Below, piece by piece: positions 3,875-14,489 of a stretch of DNA of 20,211 nucleotides. The DNA is from Promethearchaeota archaeon (GTDB taxonomy: Archaea; Asgardarchaeota; Lokiarchaeia; Sigyniarchaeales; SOKP01). Under the pieces are notes generated by a model. It saw only the letters and a program-made list of their open reading frames with translations, had not been told where the DNA came from and did not search any database. The stretch covers positions 1-20,211 of the forward strand of contig JBHLMQ010000056.1 in NCBI GenBank assembly GCA_048938005.1. The letters are read 5' to 3'. The position numbers and the translations under genes are program-made. Positions within the stretch are counted from its first letter, which is position 1, and each line of letters opens with the position of its first letter.

Positions 3875-4038
3875 CGAAGAGAGTTCATTTTTTAACAATT
3901 TCCCCCGCACATTATACGGTATTTAATATTATAACCGAACTTTCTTCGATATGTTTAAATATTATTTATTACATATATCATATTAGAGAAAACAAATTAA
4001 TTTAAAATTAATGAAAAGGTAAAAATGAACCTTATTCA
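3875..4038 (+). promoter_or_regulatory. Phased array of 13-bp palindromic operators plus TATA box upstream of the Cys/His-Lrp gene
   Basis: CGAAGAGAGTTCA 3875-3887, degenerate CGCACATTATACG 3906-3918, CGAACTTTCTTCG 3936-3948, TTTAAATA 3954-3961, TGAACCTTATTCA 4026-4038. Confidence 0.65.
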
Positions 4039-4077: not shown

Positions 4078-4671
4078 TTGATTGTGATGGTAACCTGTCC
4101 GAAATGTGGAGAAGAGTACTCATTAGGTAGAAAAATTTATCACAGCTGTGAAGGGTTTTCAATAGAACACGGTGTTATTTTTAATGACGATCGTGTAAAT
4201 CGTCCTTGGAATTGTCATTCAATGGATGAAGTCGATAAAAGAATTTTAAATATATTACAAAAAAATGACAAAATTTCATATCGAGAGTTAGCAGAAAAGT
4301 TGAAATTAGCAGCAAGCACAATTCATAATAGAGTAAAAAAGATGATTGAAGAGGAAATAATAAAACAATTTGGAGCTATAGTAGATCCAGTGAAAATTGG
4401 CTATAATACTATAGCTATAGTAGGGCTCTCAGTTGATCCAACAAAAATGAATAAAATTGCAGAGAAAATAGCATCATATAATGAAACTCAACTTGTAGCG
4501 ATATCATCTGGAGATCATGATATTATAGCTCAGATCATCGCTAAGGACGAAAAGACACTCTGGAACTTTATAAATATAAAAATCAAGACAATAAATGGAA
4601 TAAAACCTCAAATTCATGTATCTAACTTTTTAGATATATATAAATCAACGCAATCAATAAAAATTGTATAG
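4078..4671 (+). CDS. Lrp/AsnC transcriptional regulator with N-terminal Cys/His (putative metal-binding) domain; ATG at 4087 is the likelier start
   Basis: DEVDKRILNILQKNDKISYRELA..LAASTIHNRV HTH, VDPVKIGY linker, SSGDHD RAM domain. N-terminal CPKC..HSC..WNC. Confidence 0.9.
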   Translation: MIVMVTCPKCGEEYSLGRKIYHSCEGFSIEHGVIFNDDRVNRPWNCHSMDEVDKRILNILQKNDKISYRELAEKLKLAASTIHNRVKKMIEEEIIKQFGAIVDPVKIGYNTIAIVGLSVDPTKMNKIAEKIASYNETQLVAISSGDHDIIAQIIAKDEKTLWNFINIKIKTINGIKPQIHVSNFLDIYKSTQSIKIV

Positions 4672-4696: not shown

Positions 4697-5158
4697 TTAT
4701 TCATCATCAAATTGTTTTACAATTGTAAACCAAAAATTCACTATTGAATTAATAATTCTATAAAAATCCTTCATTTCTAAAGGTTTGATTACATAACAAT
4801 TAGCATGGAGATTGTAAGCTTTTATTAAATCTTCTTTTGCATCTGATACTGTTAAGATTACCACGGGAATCCGTTTTATTTTATCATCATGCTTGAGTTC
4901 TTTTAGTACCTCAAATCCATTCATCTTTGGTAAATTTAAATCTAAAATGATTAGGTTAGGGGGTTTGGCATTAGAGAATTTTCCTCTCCTCTTTAAAAAA
5001 TCAATAGCTTCAACGCCATCCCTAACAATATCTAAAGTACTGACAATTTTATTCTCTTTAAGAACTTGCTTAGTAAGTTGAATGTCTGCAGCATTATCTT
5101 CTACGAGTAAGATGTGAGCCTTAATTCTTGTATATTCATTTACCATAATATATACCAC
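4697..5158 (-). CDS. Single-domain response regulator, Rcp1/RcpA type; start may be ATG at 5146
   Basis: LLVEDNAAD, DGVEAIDFL, phosphoacceptor IILDLNLPK, VVILT, ANCYVIKP, FWF tail. Abuts the kinase stop (TAGTG overlap). Confidence 0.92.
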   Translation of the reverse strand: MVYIMVNEYTRIKAHILLVEDNAADIQLTKQVLKENKIVSTLDIVRDGVEAIDFLKRRGKFSNAKPPNLIILDLNLPKMNGFEVLKELKHDDKIKRIPVVILTVSDAKEDLIKAYNLHANCYVIKPLEMKDFYRIINSIVNFWFTIVKQFDDE

Positions 5159-6225
5159 TAGTCTTTAATTTTTTCTGGAAAAATTGTAAAGAAGAAGGTT
5201 GATCCTTTCCCAATTTCTGATTCTACCCATATTTTTCCACCATATCGTTGAACTATCTTTTTACATATAGGTAATCCTATCCCTGTACCTGGATATTCTT
5301 CTTTAGTATGTAGCCGGTAAAAAATGTTAAAAAGCTTACCAAAATAGTCTGATTCAATACCTATACCATTATCTTTTACAGAGAATAACCACTTATTATT
5401 AGTTTTGGTTACCCCTATATGTATTCTAGGTGTTTCTTGCTTTCGGAATTTTATGGCATTACTAAGTAAATTCTGAAATAATTGTATAAATTGAGATTTA
5501 TCTACTTTTAATATTGGCATTTCATCATAAGTTATAATTGCACCACTTTCTTTTATTGATTCATGTAAATTAAACAGGGCATCCTGTAAAATAACCTCAA
5601 GGTTAGTTAATTTAGGAGGTTGAGCGTGTGTTGTGATTCTTGAATATGATAATAAATCTTTTATAAGGGTATTCATTTTTTTTGCTCCGTCTGTTATAAA
5701 GTGTATAAATTCTTTACCATCCTTATCAATTTTATCTTGATATTTATCTTCTAGAAGTTGAGAAAAGCTTACAATTGCTCGTAAAGGTTCTTGCAGATCG
5801 TGTGATGCTACATAAGCAAATTGCTGTAAATCTTCGTTAGAGCGTCTTAAATCCTCCATAATTTCATTAAATTCAATTTCTCTTTTTGAAATATGCTCAG
5901 ATAGGAATGATACTACTATTCCAACAATAATTAATGAAATACCTCTCAGAAAATTATTTATTGTCTCTAGATTAAAAATCCCATAATCCTGAATGATATG
6001 AAAAAGTATTAATATTACAGCTAAAAAAGCAGGAACAATTAAACCTGTCTTTTTCCACCAGAGACTTGCCAAAATTGAAGGGAAATAGAAAAAATGCGCC
6101 ACTAGGATAGAAGTTTTAAATATTAACTCGAAATAATAAATTAATAAACACGAGAGGATAATTAATATTAAAATAATCACAATTCTTATTCTTTCTTCTT
6201 TAAATTTCGAATTCATTACAATCAT
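5158..6225 (-). CDS. Membrane-bound sensor histidine kinase with Cph1/bacteriophytochrome-type kinase core but no photosensory module
   Basis: About four N-terminal TM segments, H-box LQQFAYVASHDLQEPLR, N-box QNLLSNAIKF, G1 DNGIGI, G2 GTGIGL, GKGSTF. Confidence 0.93.
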   Translation of the reverse strand: MIVMNSKFKEERIRIVIILILIILSCLLIYYFELIFKTSILVAHFFYFPSILASLWWKKTGLIVPAFLAVILILFHIIQDYGIFNLETINNFLRGISLIIVGIVVSFLSEHISKREIEFNEIMEDLRRSNEDLQQFAYVASHDLQEPLRAIVSFSQLLEDKYQDKIDKDGKEFIHFITDGAKKMNTLIKDLLSYSRITTHAQPPKLTNLEVILQDALFNLHESIKESGAIITYDEMPILKVDKSQFIQLFQNLLSNAIKFRKQETPRIHIGVTKTNNKWLFSVKDNGIGIESDYFGKLFNIFYRLHTKEEYPGTGIGLPICKKIVQRYGGKIWVESEIGKGSTFFFTIFPEKIKD

Positions 6226-6447
6226 TTCTCTTATTTTATTATATATTCATTAATTTGATTTTTTTTTAAAATTGAGAAAAAATCATGGGAAATATTCTTT
6301 ATTAATAAAAATATTGTCCAATGGAAAATAAATTTTATCGAACAAAAATATTATAACTTCTAATTCAGAAAATGAGATTTCAGTTTAAAATTTACAATCA
6401 AAATTATTCTTTCTAAATTATAAATAAAATAATTATTTATATTAAAA

Positions 6448-6460
6448 TGAATATTATTCA
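6448..6460. promoter_or_regulatory. YGAA-N5-TTCR palindrome in the divergent kinase / REC-Lrp intergenic region
   Basis: TGAATATTATTCA. Confidence 0.5.
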
Positions 6461-6534
6461 GAATAAGAGAAATTAAGATGAAAAAGATTTTAATTTTAAA
6501 AAAATGCATAAAAAGTATTTTCAGGTGAATAAAA

Positions 6535-7419
6535 ATAGAGGATAAAAAACTCAATCTACTATTAATTGAAGATAATACTGCTGATGTGCGTCTTATTGAA
6601 GAATTATTAAAAACTTCCGCAGAATTCAAATTTGATTTAAAATCATATCCTAGACTATCTGAAAGTTTGAATAGTCTTAAAACTAGAAGCTTTGATATTA
6701 TTATATTAGATTTAACTTTGCCAGATAGCGATAGAGAGACTACTTTAGAAAGAGTTTTAAGTGTGATAGACACAATACCTATAATTATTTTAACTGGGTT
6801 GGATGATAAGGAATTTGCATTGCAATCTCTTCAAAAAGGAGCACAAGATTATATGGTAAAAAGTGAGCTTAATGGACCAAGTTTAACACGGGCGATCTTG
6901 TATGCTATTGAACGGCACAGAATTGAAAGTGAAAAGTTAATGGGAAAGGTTATAAAAATACCACTTGATAAAAAAGATAAAGAAATCCTTAATCTACTAC
7001 AAAATAATTATAGAATCTCTTATAAGGAATTAAGTAAAAAAGTGAATCTTGCCGCTAGTACTATACATAATCGAGTACAAAATATGATAAAAGAAGGAAT
7101 CATAAAAAAATTTGATACTCTCGTAGATCCACTTAAAATCGGATTTGAATCTATAGCCATTCTTGGTCTCTCTGTTGATCCATTGAGATTGGACGATATA
7201 GCAAAAAAACTAGCCATTTATGATGAGATACAATTAGTTACATCCTCAACTGGAGACCATAATTTATTAATAAAAATTATTGCGAAAGATGAGAAAAATC
7301 TCTGGAGATTTATTAATGAAGAACTTAAAACACTAGATGGAATTCAACTACCAATACATGTGTCAAGTTTTATAGATATTTTTAAAATGACTCATAAGAT
7401 TAATTTTAGAATTGAATAA
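6535..7419 (+). CDS. Response regulator with Lrp/AsnC DNA-binding output (REC-Lrp fusion); true start is upstream of the track's GTG 6586, probably ATA at 6535
   Basis: In-frame upstream codons give EDKKLNLLLIEDNTAD (REC beta1 and acidic pocket). IILDLTLPD, ILTG, GAQDYMVK follow, then a full Lrp domain (LAASTIHNRV, VDPLKIGF, STGDHN). AGGTGA at 6523-6528. Confidence 0.88.
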   Translation: MEDKKLNLLLIEDNTADVRLIEELLKTSAEFKFDLKSYPRLSESLNSLKTRSFDIIILDLTLPDSDRETTLERVLSVIDTIPIIILTGLDDKEFALQSLQKGAQDYMVKSELNGPSLTRAILYAIERHRIESEKLMGKVIKIPLDKKDKEILNLLQNNYRISYKELSKKVNLAASTIHNRVQNMIKEGIIKKFDTLVDPLKIGFESIAILGLSVDPLRLDDIAKKLAIYDEIQLVTSSTGDHNLLIKIIAKDEKNLWRFINEELKTLDGIQLPIHVSSFIDIFKMTHKINFRIE

Positions 7420-7650: not shown

Positions 7651-8988
7651 TTAAGGGAAAATTCCTCTCAACTCAATTGCTCTGGCTAATCTTGAAATAG
7701 CAATAATATATGCGGCTATTCGAAGAGTAATATTCTTTTCTTTTGATAGATTATAAACTTCCTCAAATGAACTTACAAGAATATTTTTTAACTCTTGGTT
7801 AATTCTATCTAATTTCCAAAAATAACTATGAATATCTTGAATATACTCAAAATAAGAGACACATAAGCCTCCAGCATTAGCAAGAATATCAGGGACTATT
7901 ATTATCTCCTTTTTTTTCAAAATATTATCGGCTTCTGGAGTAGTTGGTCCATTAGCACCTTCTAATATAATTTTACAATTAATTTTAAAAGCATTTGATT
8001 GGGTTATTTGGTTTTCTACTGCTGCTGGGATTAAAATGTCACATTTAAGCGTTAATAAATCTTCATTAGTGATAAATTTATAATTTTTATTTTGAAAATC
8101 TTTGAAATAGTTATTCCTATCTCTCCATTCTAATAACTCTTTAATATTTAAGCCTCCTTCGGCATATAAACCTCCGGTAATATCCGACACAGCAATAATC
8201 TTACAACCTTTTTCATATAAAATATTAGCAATATGTCCCCCAACATTGCCAAATCCTTGAATTACAATATTCTGGGTTCTTAGATCTATATCTATTTTAT
8301 TGCATAAAGCTTCGAGAACAAAAAATAAACCCATCCCTGTTGCCGTTTCTCTCCCAACTGAACCTCCTATTTCTAATGGTTTCCCCGTCACTACTCCAGG
8401 AATAGCTCTCCCTTTATGCATAGAATAGGTGTCCATAACCCAAGCCATAATTTGCGGACCTGTATTAATATCTGGAGCAGGAATATCCATATCCGGTCCA
8501 ATAATATTTATGATTTCTGTTGTATATCTCCTAGTTAGCCTTTCTAATTCCTCTTTTGATAATTTTTTTGGATCTACACATACACCTCCTTTTGCTCCTC
8601 CAAGAGGTAATCCCAATAAGCTGCTTTTCCAAGTCATCCAAGTAGCTAGTGCTTTAACTTCATCAAGATTAACATTTGGTGCAAATCTAATACCTCCCTT
8701 GCCAGGACCCCGAATAGTTGAATGTTGTACTCTGTAACCTTCAAAAATCTCTAAATCTCCATCATCCATCTTAATTGGAATTGAAACAATTAAAGAACGT
8801 TCTACTCTTTTGAGATATTTCCTAATATTATTACTTAATCCAATTTTTTCGGCAACAATATCGATTTGCTTTTTTGCCATTTCAAATAGGTTTGTCTCAA
8901 TTAAAATTTCTTTCTCTACAATTCCAGAAACATCAATTTGATCAGGTGTAACAAGTGTTATTTGATCCTTTTTTTTATTTTCTAGCAT
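7651..8988 (-). CDS. gdhA: Glutamate dehydrogenase (Glu/Leu/Phe/Val family), paralog 1 with ~30-aa N-terminal extension
   Basis: GPGKGGIRF, MTWK, GGAKGG, PAPD, TGKP, QGFGNVG, EGANGP, NAGG.CVSYFE. Confidence 0.93.
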   Translation of the reverse strand: MLENKKKDQITLVTPDQIDVSGIVEKEILIETNLFEMAKKQIDIVAEKIGLSNNIRKYLKRVERSLIVSIPIKMDDGDLEIFEGYRVQHSTIRGPGKGGIRFAPNVNLDEVKALATWMTWKSSLLGLPLGGAKGGVCVDPKKLSKEELERLTRRYTTEIINIIGPDMDIPAPDINTGPQIMAWVMDTYSMHKGRAIPGVVTGKPLEIGGSVGRETATGMGLFFVLEALCNKIDIDLRTQNIVIQGFGNVGGHIANILYEKGCKIIAVSDITGGLYAEGGLNIKELLEWRDRNNYFKDFQNKNYKFITNEDLLTLKCDILIPAAVENQITQSNAFKINCKIILEGANGPTTPEADNILKKKEIIIVPDILANAGGLCVSYFEYIQDIHSYFWKLDRINQELKNILVSSFEEVYNLSKEKNITLRIAAYIIAISRLARAIELRGIFP

Positions 8989-8991
8989 TTC

Positions 8992-9155
8992 CGAATAGAA
9001 TTCAGTTTTGATTTTTTCATTTTAATTGATTAGATTATATCTCTTCATCTTATATATGTTGTATAATATTTATAAATTTGCCGAATTTTATCCTAGCATT
9101 ATGCTCTCAAAGCGAAAACATTTCGAACAATAAAAAATCAGATGACTTTCATTCG
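8992..9155 (-). promoter_or_regulatory. Phased array of 13-bp palindromic operators plus TATA box upstream of gdh paralog 1
   Basis: TGACTTTCATTCG 9143-9155, CGAAAACATTTCG 9113-9125, degenerate CGAATTTTATCCT 9082-9094, TTTATAAA 9069-9076, CGAATAGAATTCA 8992-9004. Confidence 0.65.
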
Positions 9156-10706: not shown

Positions 10707-10721
10707 TTGAATTTTTTTCAA
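10707..10721. promoter_or_regulatory. YGAA-N5-TTCR palindrome upstream of gdh paralog 2
   Basis: TTGAATTTTTTTCAA, about 53 nt before the ATG at 10654. Confidence 0.5.
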
Positions 10722-10870: not shown

Positions 10871-13603
10871 TCATTTCTCAATGTGGGCAAATTTGTTTTT
10901 TAAATATTCATGAATAGCTTTTGCTGCTCGTTTTCCTGACCCCATTGCCGAAATCACAGTAGCAGAACCCGAAACTATATCTCCCCCCGCATAAACTCCT
11001 TCTATATTGGTTCTACTATTTTCATCAGTTTCGAGATATCCCCATTTAGTTAGTTTTAAGTCAGGAATTGATTTAGTTAAAATAGGATTAGCAGTAGTAC
11101 CAATACCTAATAATACAGTGTCAGTTTCAATGAAAAATTCAGAATTTTCAATTGGTATGGGTCTTCTCCTTCCTGAATCATCTGGTTTACCTAAACGCAT
11201 TTTAATAGCTTGAATCTGTTTTACATTATCATTTTCGTCTCCTATAAACCTTAAAGGACTAGATAAGAAATGAAATTCAATTCCTTCTTCTAATGCATGG
11301 TGGTATTCTTCTTTTCTTGCAGGCATTTCTATTTCCGATCTTCTATAAACAACTATCACTTTTTTTGCCCCTAATCGCTTAGCTACTCTGGATGCATCAA
11401 GAGCGGTATTTCCACCACCAATAACAGTTACGATTTCTCCTACTTTAATTGGTGTATCATATTCTGGAAATCTGTAAGCTTTCATTAAATTAGCTCTTGT
11501 GAGGAATTCATTAGCTGTTAAAACCCCATTTAAAGTCAATCCAGGGATTTTAGGAAACATAGGGAGTCCTGCTCCTACTCCGATGAAAAAAGCTTCGAAT
11601 CCCATATCCCTTAAATCTTGAAGAGACAAAATTTTGCCAATAATTTTATTATACTTTACTTTAACATCAAGCATTTTTAATGTTTCAATTTCATCTTTAA
11701 CAATCTCTTTTGGCAATCTGAATTCTGGAATACCATAAGTTAATACACCGCCACCTGCATGGAATGCTTCAAAAATAGTGACATCATACCCTTTTCTGGC
11801 AAGCTCTCCTGCACAAGTTAGTCCTGCGGGTCCTGAACCGATAACAGCAACTTTAATATGATTCGGAGCTTTACACTCTGGGCATTCCTTTAACTGATTT
11901 TCTCGTTCCCAATCAGCAATAAATCTTTCCAAATATCCGATCGCGATTGGTTCTTCTAACTCATTCATTAAACATGTTTCTTCACATTGAACTTCTTGAG
12001 GACAAACTCTTCCACAGATAGCGGGTAATAAATTATAGTCTTTCATCACTCTAAGTGCATCAATGTATTTCTCGTCTCTAAGTAATCTTATAAATCGGGG
12101 GATATCAATATTAACTGGACATCCAGAAACACAGTGAGGAAAACCACATTGTAAACACCTCTTAGATTCCAATTTTACCATTTCTAATGTTAATCCTTTG
12201 GGTACTTCCTGAAAATTAGTAACTCTTATATTTGGATATTGTTCCGGCATTTTTGGCCTTCTTAGCTCCTTATAGAACTTTTCTTTTGATAGACTAACTC
12301 TTTTTAATCTATTAAAACTCTCATCTTCCTCACTTATTTCTTTTGATTCAATTAAGTGAAGATCTAATGCTTTTTGGAATAAATCCGCACCTTTTTTAGT
12401 TCTGATAATGACTGTTGACCAATCTGACTCAGATCCGAGAGAACCAACAGCAATATCTGCTTGTTCGGATGTAAAATCACCACAGAAAAAACATCCTAAT
12501 CTACTATAAGTTTTGAGTTTTTTTACAGGTATAGTATAAATGGAATGATCTTTATGAAAAGCATAAAAGCGTCCTTTATCGATATCCATTTTTTTAATAA
12601 CATTAGGAGATATTTGAAATTCAATTTTTAAAAGATTTTTTATATTTTCATAATCAAATGATTCCATACAGAACAGTCCAATTTTTAAAGCAATATTATC
12701 ATAAAAAGGTTTGTTAAATGGATAGAAACTTATTTTTTTTAAAGCTTCCATCATACAGGGCGTACCAACTATTGCAATATTCTTGTAATCTCTTGAGCTA
12801 TGCAATAATTTCAAAGATGGGGTATTAGTGTATTTTGTACCAGCTGTTCTTAATAATTCCTCTTCATTATCAATTAGGACTGGTAAGGGTTTGTGCGGCT
12901 CATCTGAAACGCTGACAGCTATAGCAGCATCTATGAGTTTTTCTTGGAATGCGGTTTTAAGTAAAGATGTGACAATCCCACCATTTTGAGCCAATGTTTT
13001 AATATTCTCATTAGTAGTTTGAGCAGAATATATGTTATAATAATGGTTTATTTGCTCTGCAAACTTTAAGTCTGCATCCTTACTCTCAATATATTTTTTT
13101 AATATTTTAGGAAAGAATGATCTTGGACAACAAGAAAAGCATAGACCACAATTGAGACAAAGATCTTCATTAATATCAAATGAGCTACTTGTGTAATTGA
13201 TAGCATTTACAGGACAAACTGAATCACATAAACCACACCCACAACATAAATTTTTGTCTCTAATTATTGAAACATTCGGGAATAATCCTTTGTTTTCATT
13301 GGATTCTATAAACTTATGAAAAAATCTTGATTGTTCTCCTAAGAATTCTAATGACCCTAATTCTCTTAGATATTCAATATTATAAATCAGATTTTTTTCG
13401 GGAACATCTAACTCACTATTCAATTTCTGAAGATCTAAAGCCCCAATCTCTTTAATTTTTTTTAGGATTTCCTGTCTTTCTTTTTCAGCTTCCTTTATTG
13501 AATTGATGAATGCATTATATTCACCTTCATTGTATCTAGCCTGTTGTAGAATTCTATCCTTATTTTCTATGAATACCTTAACCAATGGCGTTTGTTCTTC
13601 CAT
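10871..13603 (-). CDS. Fusion protein: helical/wHTH-like N-terminus + 2x[4Fe-4S] + FrhB/FpoF-type F420-binding domain + NfnB/SudA/GltD-type FAD/NADPH oxidoreductase
   Basis: CCGCGLCDSVCP and CLNCGLCFSCCP. FrhB motifs AQNGGIVT, AGTKY, VGTPC, IGLFC, GCFFCGD, ADIAVG. NfnB motifs CLQC..CVSGCP, CGRVCPQE.QCE..C, GSGPAG, GIPEFRLP, GGGNTALD, VYRR, AGGD. ATG at 13603 is preferred to GTG 13618 because AGGTGA lies at 13620-13615. Confidence 0.9.
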   Translation of the reverse strand: MEEQTPLVKVFIENKDRILQQARYNEGEYNAFINSIKEAEKERQEILKKIKEIGALDLQKLNSELDVPEKNLIYNIEYLRELGSLEFLGEQSRFFHKFIESNENKGLFPNVSIIRDKNLCCGCGLCDSVCPVNAINYTSSSFDINEDLCLNCGLCFSCCPRSFFPKILKKYIESKDADLKFAEQINHYYNIYSAQTTNENIKTLAQNGGIVTSLLKTAFQEKLIDAAIAVSVSDEPHKPLPVLIDNEEELLRTAGTKYTNTPSLKLLHSSRDYKNIAIVGTPCMMEALKKISFYPFNKPFYDNIALKIGLFCMESFDYENIKNLLKIEFQISPNVIKKMDIDKGRFYAFHKDHSIYTIPVKKLKTYSRLGCFFCGDFTSEQADIAVGSLGSESDWSTVIIRTKKGADLFQKALDLHLIESKEISEEDESFNRLKRVSLSKEKFYKELRRPKMPEQYPNIRVTNFQEVPKGLTLEMVKLESKRCLQCGFPHCVSGCPVNIDIPRFIRLLRDEKYIDALRVMKDYNLLPAICGRVCPQEVQCEETCLMNELEEPIAIGYLERFIADWERENQLKECPECKAPNHIKVAVIGSGPAGLTCAGELARKGYDVTIFEAFHAGGGVLTYGIPEFRLPKEIVKDEIETLKMLDVKVKYNKIIGKILSLQDLRDMGFEAFFIGVGAGLPMFPKIPGLTLNGVLTANEFLTRANLMKAYRFPEYDTPIKVGEIVTVIGGGNTALDASRVAKRLGAKKVIVVYRRSEIEMPARKEEYHHALEEGIEFHFLSSPLRFIGDENDNVKQIQAIKMRLGKPDDSGRRRPIPIENSEFFIETDTVLLGIGTTANPILTKSIPDLKLTKWGYLETDENSRTNIEGVYAGGDIVSGSATVISAMGSGKRAAKAIHEYLKNKFAHIEK

Positions 13604-13604
13604 C

Positions 13605-14489
13605 TTAAGGTGCTTCACCTTTTGATTTTTCTAATGCTCTACATTCCTGTTCATATTGTTCTAATGATTCTTTCTCTTGATCAAGAAACCTATTAGCACG
13701 ATTTAAAAGATTATCAAAATCAATAATGTGCCCATCTACATCTGGACCATCAACACATGCAAATTGAATTTCTCCAGAATGAGTTGAAAATCGACATCCT
13801 CCACACATCCCTGTGCCATCAATCATTATTGTATTTAAAGATACAAAAGTTTTTACCTTCGGTAATTCCTTATTACCATTTGTCATAATGGAAACATTTT
13901 TCATCATAATCAAAGGTCCAATCGCAATAACAGCACTTATTTTCTCTTTTTTTAATAAATCTTGAAGTGGTTTAGTTACAAATCCTTTTATTCCCTCGCT
14001 TCCATCATCTGTACAAATAATAAATCTGTCACTAACAGCAGCTATTTTATCTTTCCAGAATATTAAATCTTTCGTACGAGCACCAATAATAGAAATAATT
14101 TTGTTTCCTACCCTTTTTAATTCTTTTGCTTGGGGATAACATTCAGCTATTCCAACTCCCCCACCAATAATTATAACAGGAGATTCATATTTTTCAATGT
14201 GAATTCTATTACCTAATGGCCCAACAACATCTAGAATATTGTCACCTACATTTTGATTTGAGAGAAGTTTTGTAGTTTTTCCTACCACTTGAAAGACAAT
14301 CGTTATTACCCCTTGATCTGCATTATAATCCGCTATTGTTAATGGAATTCTTTCTCCTGTTTCATTTATTCTAATGAGTATAAAATTCCCAGCAAATGCC
14401 TTTTTAGCAATTATTGGAGTTTTTAGGTCCATCTCAAATAAAGTCCCACTATTACCTAATTGGATTTTTTTTAGAATTTTGTAGGGCAC
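13605..14489 (-). CDS. nfnA: NfnA/SudB (PyrK-like) FAD/NAD-binding [2Fe-2S] small subunit
   Basis: GERIPLTI, VGKTT, GPLGN, GGGVGIA, TDDGSEG.KG, GPLIMM, DGTGMCGGCR..ACVDGP (Asp + 3 Cys cluster ligands). GTG start; stop is 1 nt from the next ATG. Confidence 0.9.
   Translation of the reverse strand: MPYKILKKIQLGNSGTLFEMDLKTPIIAKKAFAGNFILIRINETGERIPLTIADYNADQGVITIVFQVVGKTTKLLSNQNVGDNILDVVGPLGNRIHIEKYESPVIIIGGGVGIAECYPQAKELKRVGNKIISIIGARTKDLIFWKDKIAAVSDRFIICTDDGSEGIKGFVTKPLQDLLKKEKISAVIAIGPLIMMKNVSIMTNGNKELPKVKTFVSLNTIMIDGTGMCGGCRFSTHSGEIQFACVDGPDVDGHIIDFDNLLNRANRFLDQEKESLEQYEQECRALEKSKGEAP

Follow-up and report, generated by a model that had tools for sequence, protein, structure and literature searches.

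A receiver–Lrp fusion beside a histidine kinase and glutamate dehydrogenase: a candidate phosphorylation-gated regulator in one family of Asgard archaea

Architecture and range of the fusion

We analyzed a stretch of 20,211 nt from a Promethearchaeota archaeon (contig JBHLMQ010000056.1, assembly GCA_048938005.1), hereafter the window, whose positions are used as coordinates throughout. It contains a plus-strand reading frame that extends from 6529 to its stop codon (7417-7419). The encoded protein, REC-Lrp, carries a phospho-receiver (REC) domain in front of an Lrp/AsnC-type regulator; its residues are numbered on the 296-aa translation from 6529. A membrane histidine kinase and a glutamate dehydrogenase (gdh) are encoded on either side (Table 1). 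Judged by its sequence, REC-Lrp is a canonical receiver joined by a long helix to a full Lrp/AsnC module.

Table 1. Features of the REC-Lrp locus, in coordinates of the window
Feature	Position	Strand	Remarks
REC-Lrp gene	6535..7419	+	294 codons plus stop; start ATA 6535 placed by the alignment of relatives and by GGTGA 6 nt upstream
Receiver (REC) domain	6559..6864	+	residues 11-112; E14, D15, D61, T89, K111
Long helix α5 and short linker to the helix-turn-helix	6874..6963	+	AlphaFold helix 116-138; pLDDT <50 at 139-142
AsnC-type winged helix-turn-helix	6964..7107	+	residues 146-193; recognition helix LAASTIHNRVQN
RAM domain (Lrp/AsnC ligand binding and dimerization)	7168..7395	+	AsnC_trans_reg and AsnC_trans_reg_3 matches
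Shine-Dalgarno-like AGGTGA	6523..6528	+	its TGA doubles as the in-frame stop upstream of REC-Lrp
Own-promoter candidate operator TGAATATTATTCA	6448..6460		perfect palindrome directly after TATA-like TTTATATT at 6436-6443
gdh candidate operator array	8992..9155		full boxes 8992-9004 and 9113-9125; degenerate boxes 9082-9094 and 9143-9155; centers 30, 31 and 90 bp apart
Paralogue candidate operators	3875-3887, 3936-3948, 4026-4038		spacing 61 and 90 bp
Membrane histidine kinase	5158..6225	-	four-helix membrane part; HisKA 45.9 bits, HATPase_c 94.0 bits
Receiver-only response regulator	4697..5158	-	start overlaps the kinase stop by one base
Glutamate dehydrogenase (gdh)	7651..8988	-	convergent with REC-Lrp; best NCBIfam model GdhA_Arch, 519.6 bits, below its cut-off of 750
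Lrp paralogue	4078..4671	+	Cys/His-rich N-terminal extension (CPKC...HSC); open reading frame and Pfam
Kinase-side conserved block	6299..6350		box-like element at 6308-6320, CGAA half-site; columns conserved at 75-90% or more across 37 aligned regions

Response_reg, HTH_24/HTH_AsnC-type (HTH, helix-turn-helix) and AsnC_trans_reg all match REC-Lrp above their Pfam gathering scores. The Response_reg match (53.1 bits, cut-off 30.2) covers residues 11-112, which correspond to positions 2-100 of the 111 in the profile. HTH_24 (61.6 bits) and HTH_AsnC-type (51.2 bits, cut-off 27) both match at 146-193, and AsnC_trans_reg (37.0 bits, cut-off 25) matches at 214-273. The receiver contains the acidic pair in LLLIEDN, the phosphoacceptor Asp in ILDLTLPD, the Thr in ILTG and the Lys in YMVK. 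When 120 database relatives are aligned and each column is counted over the sequences that cover it, E14 and D15 are found in 96 of 96, D61 in 116 of 116, and both T89 and K111 in all 120. The first-pass annotation of this DNA had described an intact receiver joined to HTH and RAM domains, and the three domain matches, the motifs it named and the invariant catalytic residues bear this out. The ERH motif in the α5 region (E128, R129, H130) is also conserved. In the HTH domain, R182 is kept in all 120 relatives and the recognition helix is fully conserved. G242 in a loop of the RAM domain is likewise present in 120 of 120, together with conserved neighboring Ser/Thr residues; we take this Gly-containing loop to be a ligand contact in the Lrp family. 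There is no Pfam match to a Trans_reg_C or GerE output domain in REC-Lrp. No NCBIfam model reaches its cut-off for the protein, the response-regulator models scoring far below it and over the receiver part only. By these profile matches the protein is both a receiver and an Lrp protein, outside the OmpR, NarL and other classical output families.

Structure prediction supports the receiver fold. The AlphaFold monomer (20-row alignment, mean predicted local distance difference test (pLDDT) score 68.3) contains a receiver with five strand-helix units (E7-13/H17-28, E34-40/H43-52, E57-61/H69-79, E85-89/H91-102 and E107-110/H116-138), with pLDDT 83-93 over residues 11-90. A homodimer was predicted with an interaction score (ipSAE) of 0.53, compared with 0.00 for the best of three controls; the 0.53 mark is reached by 20 of 30 proteins solved as one-chain pairs and by 1 of 23 solved as single chains. 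Contacts agree by at least 84% between runs, and the partner pLDDT is at least 77. The predicted interface is composed of residues 190-294 only, that is, the RAM domain and the C-terminal strand. Because Lrp dimers have already been solved, this result probably reflects likeness to them and is not proof of a dimer.

The fusion appears to be restricted in its range. A word-indexed search returned 742 hits, and the best 120 of them are 57-100% identical to REC-Lrp and nearly all have the three domains. Names of the relatives, from Asgard metagenome-assembled genomes, are automatic (‘winged helix-turn-helix transcriptional regulator’, ‘response regulator’). Among 400 genomes of the phylum searched at E ≤ 1e-60, matches were found in 62 of the 134 genomes of one Loki-type family, in 5 of its 13 genera, and in none of the 266 genomes of 32 other families. 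About 53 of the matching genomes have a full-length copy and 6 have an Lrp-length match only. Contigs with REC-Lrp proteins 75-96% identical to ours are titled as Hod-, Hermod-, Thor- or Odinarchaeota or as Promethearchaeota (L009-L059). As the genome search puts all carriers into one family, some of these public taxon labels must be wrong.

More distant relatives were sought with HMMER among 50%-identity cluster representatives. The 150 best hits include one full-length match, P0113, which represents the entire family there; the others after it are fragments, plain Lrp proteins and multi-receiver kinases. Ten candidates running into the HTH region were considered as distant REC-Lrp fusions and rejected, as they proved to be REC-HisKA, REC-GerE or GGDEF proteins. 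The ESM Atlas holds two bacterial clusters, from Chloroflexota, with Response_reg, HTH_24/HTH_AsnC and AsnC_trans_reg (55 and 99 members, 278 and 274 aa, feature scores 0.89). Because they list the same three Pfam families and are similar in length, the REC-HTH-RAM architecture is probably not unique to Asgard archaea, although the Chloroflexota clusters, compared by domain labels only, are no more than a lead. They are not among the 150 best HMMER hits, which suggests distant or independent fusions. With one Asgard family, one full-length protein among those 150 hits and the Chloroflexota lead, the architecture is not widespread.

Conserved neighbors and candidate operators

Gene context was examined at 50 loci carrying the fusion in species-representative genomes. 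The kinase lies beside REC-Lrp at 47 of them, or 47 of the 48 with room upstream. The two genes are divergent at 44 loci and co-oriented at three (L049, L052 and L054), where the order is kinase, receiver, REC-Lrp. The kinase is missing at L033, and the two further loci have no room upstream. Its membrane part gives a weak DUF4118 match below the cut-off, and no recognizable sensor domain was found in it by the Pfam scan. The receiver-only gene is present at 39 of 50 loci, and its product is 35% identical to the receiver of REC-Lrp. A convergent gdh of the type at 7651 is found within 1.2 kb at 35 of 50. The kinase with HisKA and HATPase_c, the receiver-only gene and the convergent gdh are thus located and oriented as first annotated.

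Our analysis also revealed a 13-bp palindrome, YGAA-N5-TTCR, that is conserved at the promoters of REC-Lrp itself, of gdh and of a nearby gene for an Lrp paralogue. The 37 kinase/REC-Lrp intergenic regions that were aligned contain two conserved blocks inside diverged AT-rich DNA. At the REC-Lrp promoter, the exact 13-mer is found in 38 of 45 regions and YGAA-N5-TTCR in 43 of 45, usually 82-88 nt before the start codon. Upstream of gdh, all 34 regions contain at least one box and 29 contain at least two. In most loci one box is located just before the gdh start codon and two are located about 140 and 170 nt upstream, 30 bp apart. The paralogue promoter has two or three boxes in 24 of 24 related loci and in the window, most often three at the 61/90 spacing. 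Across species the GAA/TTC half-sites are kept and the five central bases vary, the pattern expected for the site of a dimeric HTH protein. Consistent with an Lrp-type site, FL11 recognizes a 13-bp palindrome, and clustered, phased and imperfect sites are usual for the Lrp family (PMC2995911, available text).

The boxes are concentrated at this locus. The window contains 10 YGAA-N5-TTCR sites, compared with 2.42 ± 1.56 expected, and none of 100 shuffles reaches 10. The 3.72-Mb genome contains 375 sites. Open reading frames of at least 120 aa cover all but 51 of them, and 8 of these 51 are on this 20-kb contig. The genome's only two clusters of such sites (at least two within 250 bp) are the paralogue and gdh promoters described here. 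It is the half-site pattern that is informative, rather than the full TGAATATTATTCA with mismatches: with up to 2 mismatches the latter has nine matches versus 4.9 expected, a number reached by 10 of 100 shuffles and alone not significant. No RNA run is present among the 20 sequencing runs listed.

A second conserved block lies on the kinase side of the intergenic region. In relatives it contains a 6-2-6 inverted repeat, ATATTG-TC-CAATAT, beside a minus-strand TATA-like element; this repeat is degenerate in the window. The CGAA half-site of the block is strongly conserved. The kinase-side palindrome ATATTGTCCAATAT was also considered as a regulon motif and rejected, its 14 matches with up to 3 mismatches (9.2 expected) not being significant.

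The Lrp paralogue, encoded at 25 of the 50 loci, is 52% identical to the Lrp half of REC-Lrp. The recognition stretch LAASTIHNRV is identical in both proteins, so that the paralogue, by itself or in oligomers mixed with REC-Lrp, may recognize these boxes too. Its N-terminal extension of 45 residues (CPKC ... HSC ... CH) is probably a zinc ribbon. One cassette therefore encodes two Lrp proteins with the same recognition stretch and different N-terminal sensor modules.

A further locus, L063 (7971-13613), from a related genome, keeps the flanking genes and three gdh genes and has a plain Lrp gene in place of the paralogue, receiver, kinase and REC-Lrp. No YGAA-N5-TTCR boxes were found before gdh at L063. 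The plain Lrp in the position of the cassette suggests that the cassette or the fusion arose beside an older Lrp-gdh neighborhood.

The remaining part of the window contains a second gdh and genes for an M3 oligopeptidase, a CitMHS transporter and a large iron-sulfur flavoprotein with an FrhB-like domain. This gene content fits amino-acid catabolism. In the stretch 10871-14489 (minus strand), a 915-aa protein combines FrhB/FdhB N- and C-terminal domains with 4Fe-4S domains and with Fer4_20 and Pyr_redox_2 (like a glutamate synthase small subunit or NfnB). Its gene overlaps that of a 294-aa DHODB-type iron-sulfur protein directly upstream of the gdh genes. This may be an electron-transfer partner for glutamate oxidation. 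The cassette-linked gdh has about 27 extra N-terminal residues: gdh matches that begin at query residue 1-13 are mostly located beside REC-Lrp, and those of other paralogues in the same genomes mostly begin at 20-35. The window's genome has a further gdh copy on C70.

Translation start of REC-Lrp

Position 6535-6537 reads ATA, which is not a canonical start, and an in-frame TGA is located at 6526-6528. The first in-frame ATG, GTG or TTG is the GTG at 6586. A start there would lose 17 residues, including strand β1 and the ED pocket, and the residues upstream of this GTG are conserved among relatives. The database gene call P0001 (284 aa) begins at ATT 6565 and is 10 residues shorter, which removes β1. 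The ATA at 6535 aligns with the initiator Met of relatives and is located 6 nt after GGTGA (6524-6528). Two sequencing runs, each from a different study, have contigs with these same letters; one of the runs may be the source sample.

Comparison of the 50 loci indicated that a noncanonical codon is common at this position. The aligned codon is ATA in 25 loci, ATC in 5, ATG in 11, TTG in 2, GTG in 2 and another codon in 5, and 24 of the 50 have no canonical start before β1. GGTG is found within 16 nt upstream in 38 loci, with a spacer of 5-6 nt in 36 of these and of 8 nt in two. We then scanned the genome for codons that lie 5-7 nt behind GGTGA and begin an open frame of 100 codons or more, with a close upstream stop and no canonical start between. 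Among the 120 sites found, 39 have ATT, ATA or ATC and 33 have ATG, GTG or TTG at this position; five permuted control motifs gave ATT, ATA or ATC at 26 of 233 sites. In 33 of the 39 candidates the spacing behind GGTGA is exactly 6 nt. Examples of such starts are C37:24260(-), C31:134547(-), C63:21973(+), C29:6219(-) and C56:9112(+). When eight of the genes were translated from ATT, ATA or ATC, a Pfam domain started before the first canonical start in seven (Usp twice, a Ras-like GTPase, thiolase, ThiF, FAA hydrolase and ribosomal L16).

The aligned codons, the GGTG spacing and this genome-wide habit together indicate that REC-Lrp is intact and that its translation most likely starts at AUA. 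The coordinates 6535-7419 first assigned to the gene and its intact frame are thus retained, with the correction that 6535 is not a canonical start. Shine-Dalgarno sites are rare in Lokiarchaea (PMC12993045, available text), and a weak start codon may therefore be the main reason for a gene to retain a strong site. Two other explanations were rejected. Read-through or recoding of the TGA at 6526-6528 is not supported by the upstream sequence, which lacks protein conservation across loci, and the TGA belongs to the conserved GGTGA. The GTG within GGTGA is out of frame at the usual 6-nt spacer; the few loci whose spacer measures 5 nt are the only ones where it is in frame. In practice, the public gene calls for this protein remove β1, and a canonical start at GTG 6586 would also remove the acidic pocket.

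A short upstream open reading frame (6478-6528, MKKILILKKCIKSIFR) begins 17 nt past the own-promoter operator, and its stop is the TGA of GGTGA. Counterparts with ATG or TTG at the same place and a peptide M[KE]K[IV]L.. are found in about 21 of 43 box-bearing loci, all of them close relatives, and vary in length and stop between loci. This frame could be regulatory, or could just reflect DNA-level conservation around the transcription start.

A proposed kinase–Lrp circuit and its alternatives

The conserved gene order and boxes suggest that a kinase signal probably controls amino-acid breakdown in these organisms. We consider it fairly probable that REC-Lrp is a phosphorylation-gated Lrp that controls gdh, its own gene and the paralogue gene. 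The membrane kinase, the receiver-only regulator and REC-Lrp would form a three-protein two-component system with REC-Lrp as its DNA-binding output. REC-Lrp, translated from AUA behind a strong ribosome-binding site like many genes of this genome, would form Lrp-type dimers through the RAM domain, and the dimers would come together on the phased sites. The neighboring kinase would phosphorylate Asp61 and thereby alter DNA binding or higher-order assembly. The outcome would set transcription of the cassette gdh, where the boxes flanking the core promoter would act as a switch, and would feed back on both regulator genes. As the site at its own promoter directly follows the TATA-like element, autorepression is suggested there. 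The receiver-only protein may compete for, or drain, phosphoryl groups, and the RAM domain may add an amino-acid input.

The first-pass annotation had proposed that REC-Lrp integrates an external kinase signal with the internal amino-acid level. Sequence and gene context support part of this proposal, namely the receiver–Lrp fusion, the conserved kinase and the link to gdh through conserved operator sites. An external origin of the signal finds no support in the kinase, which has no recognizable sensor domain, and for the amino-acid input what was seen is the conservation of the Gly-containing loop of the RAM domain. A more elaborate version can be put forward tentatively. In this two-input nucleoprotein switch, receiver phosphorylation and a RAM-bound amino acid would jointly decide the assembly of Lrp dimers, possibly mixed with the zinc-ribbon paralogue, on operators phased by 30 and 90 bp, wrapping the gdh promoter. 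This would place glutamate catabolism under the joint control of a membrane signal and the internal amino-acid pool, and the switch would have arisen within one Asgard family as an innovation of that lineage. Judging from the gene content of the window, glutamate catabolism would be a step of central importance when Loki-type Asgard archaea ferment amino acids.

Several observations weigh against a phosphorylation-gated REC-Lrp acting on these promoters. REC-Lrp is divergent from the kinase operon, in which the partner of the kinase is the receiver-only gene. AlphaFold assigns low confidence to the Lrp half of the monomer (pLDDT 44-77), and the predicted dimer has no confident receiver-receiver contact. 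Ten loci with at least 600 nt downstream have no gdh within 1.2 kb, although in two of these a gdh is located 3.7-3.9 kb away. The own-promoter box is absent in 2 of 45 intergenic regions (L053 and L058), and the box before the second gdh (10708-10720) was not found before that gdh type in six related loci. In addition, the candidate boxes could be read by either local Lrp, since a paralogue with the same recognition stretch is present at 25 of 50 loci.

This last point leads to one alternative, in which the zinc-ribbon paralogue reads the boxes and REC-Lrp is a phosphorylation-dependent anti-regulator acting through mixed oligomers or competition. The 52% identity of the two Lrp halves and their common LAASTIHNRV stretch are compatible with it, as are the most regular array of boxes at the paralogue's own promoter and the higher oligomers formed by Lrp proteins (PMC2995911, available text). 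However, half of the loci lack the paralogue. Distant loci such as L034-L058 keep the boxes of both the REC-Lrp and the gdh promoter with no paralogue nearby, the rest of those genomes not having been searched, and R182 and the recognition helix are fully conserved in REC-Lrp too. We regard this alternative as unlikely. The arrangement of the kinase operon raises another one, in which the kinase signals solely to the receiver-only regulator, and the receiver of REC-Lrp uses another kinase or acetyl phosphate or has a phosphorylation-free role in assembly. The shared strand and one-base overlap of the kinase and receiver-only genes, with REC-Lrp on the opposite strand, the low identity of the two receivers and the dimer predicted without receiver contacts would agree with it. 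The kinase nevertheless adjoins REC-Lrp at nearly every locus with room upstream, including three where all three genes are co-oriented. Since the five catalytic residues of the receiver are all invariant, a pseudo-receiver that works independently of phosphorylation is disfavored, and we consider separate signaling of this kind quite unlikely.

It is highly improbable that REC-Lrp is a decaying or N-terminally truncated copy. The lack of ATG, GTG or TTG before the first receiver strand, the in-frame TGA, the late first canonical GTG and the disagreement of public gene calls on the start, as in P0001, would be expected of such a copy. They are outweighed by the recurrence of ATA (25 of 50) and ATC (5 of 50) at the aligned position, the 24 of 50 loci without a canonical start before β1, the GGTG at a 5-6-nt spacing in 36 of 38 loci and the conservation of the residues before GTG 6586. 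The genome-wide starts behind GGTGA, 39 noncanonical versus 33 canonical, and the domains that precede the canonical start in seven of eight genes oppose it as well. This explanation is therefore largely refuted.

REC-Lrp can be compared with several known systems. The archaeal Lrp/AsnC proteins FL11/PH1519, PH0140 and LrpA of Pyrococcus and 7fby_A have HTH_AsnC and RAM domains in common with it, with best PDB E-values from 1e-28 to 4e-19. The clusters of a 13-bp palindrome near promoters are a further likeness (PMC2995911, available text), and REC-Lrp is predicted to dimerize through its RAM domain. Unlike REC-Lrp, with its N-terminal phospho-receiver beside a histidine kinase, these proteins measure about 140-180 aa, contain no receiver and respond to amino acids. 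In the available text of the review PMC2995911, the words ‘phosphorylation’ and ‘fusion’ have 0 occurrences. FilI-FilR1/FilR2 of Methanosaeta harundinacea and LtrK/LtrR of Methanococcoides burtonii are archaeal two-component systems with a DNA-binding regulator, as proposed here, and FilI serves two regulators, one DNA-binding and one receiver-only, resembling the trio at our locus (PMC5847659, available text). In the same source, FilR1 (wHTH-DUF1724-REC) and LtrR (HTH-REC) have a C-terminal receiver and no Lrp or RAM part, whereas REC-Lrp has the order REC-HTH-RAM and an Lrp output that would oligomerize. REC-NitrOD1 of Nitrosopumilus, of the Thaumarchaeota lineage, is described there as a receiver on a RAM-like domain, with no HTH described; it was compared with REC-Lrp by this description only. 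OmpR/PhoB and NarL/FixJ proteins share with REC-Lrp the N-terminal receiver and C-terminal DNA-binding domain. The output of REC-Lrp is neither Trans_reg_C nor GerE, and as an Lrp output it would dimerize by itself and bring a second, putatively ligand-binding domain.

We found no paper on a receiver–Lrp fusion. It is not among the architectures listed in the main text of PMC5847659; Table S3 of that article, on unfinished Asgard genomes, may list REC-Lrp. Nor did we find a paper on Lrp control of gdh in Asgard archaea. What appears to be new is a response regulator with a complete Lrp output that is restricted to one lineage and has an unusually clear predicted regulon. The rarity of archaeal receivers with a DNA-binding output, noted in the first annotation, is stated by Galperin et al. 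(2018), in whose account few archaeal two-component systems have a DNA-binding protein as their last component and target genes are known for almost none of them (PMC5847659, available text). The cassette described here offers a kinase, two receivers, a defined 13-bp candidate operator and three candidate target promoters within 5 kb, and every step is testable in vitro with recombinant proteins, with no culture needed. If the proposed circuit is true, it would represent a new control of Lrp, by phosphorylation besides or instead of amino acids, and REC-Lrp would be the first Lrp shown under the control of a two-component kinase. For the archaea most closely related to eukaryotes, it would also provide a first circuit regulating the catabolism of amino acids.

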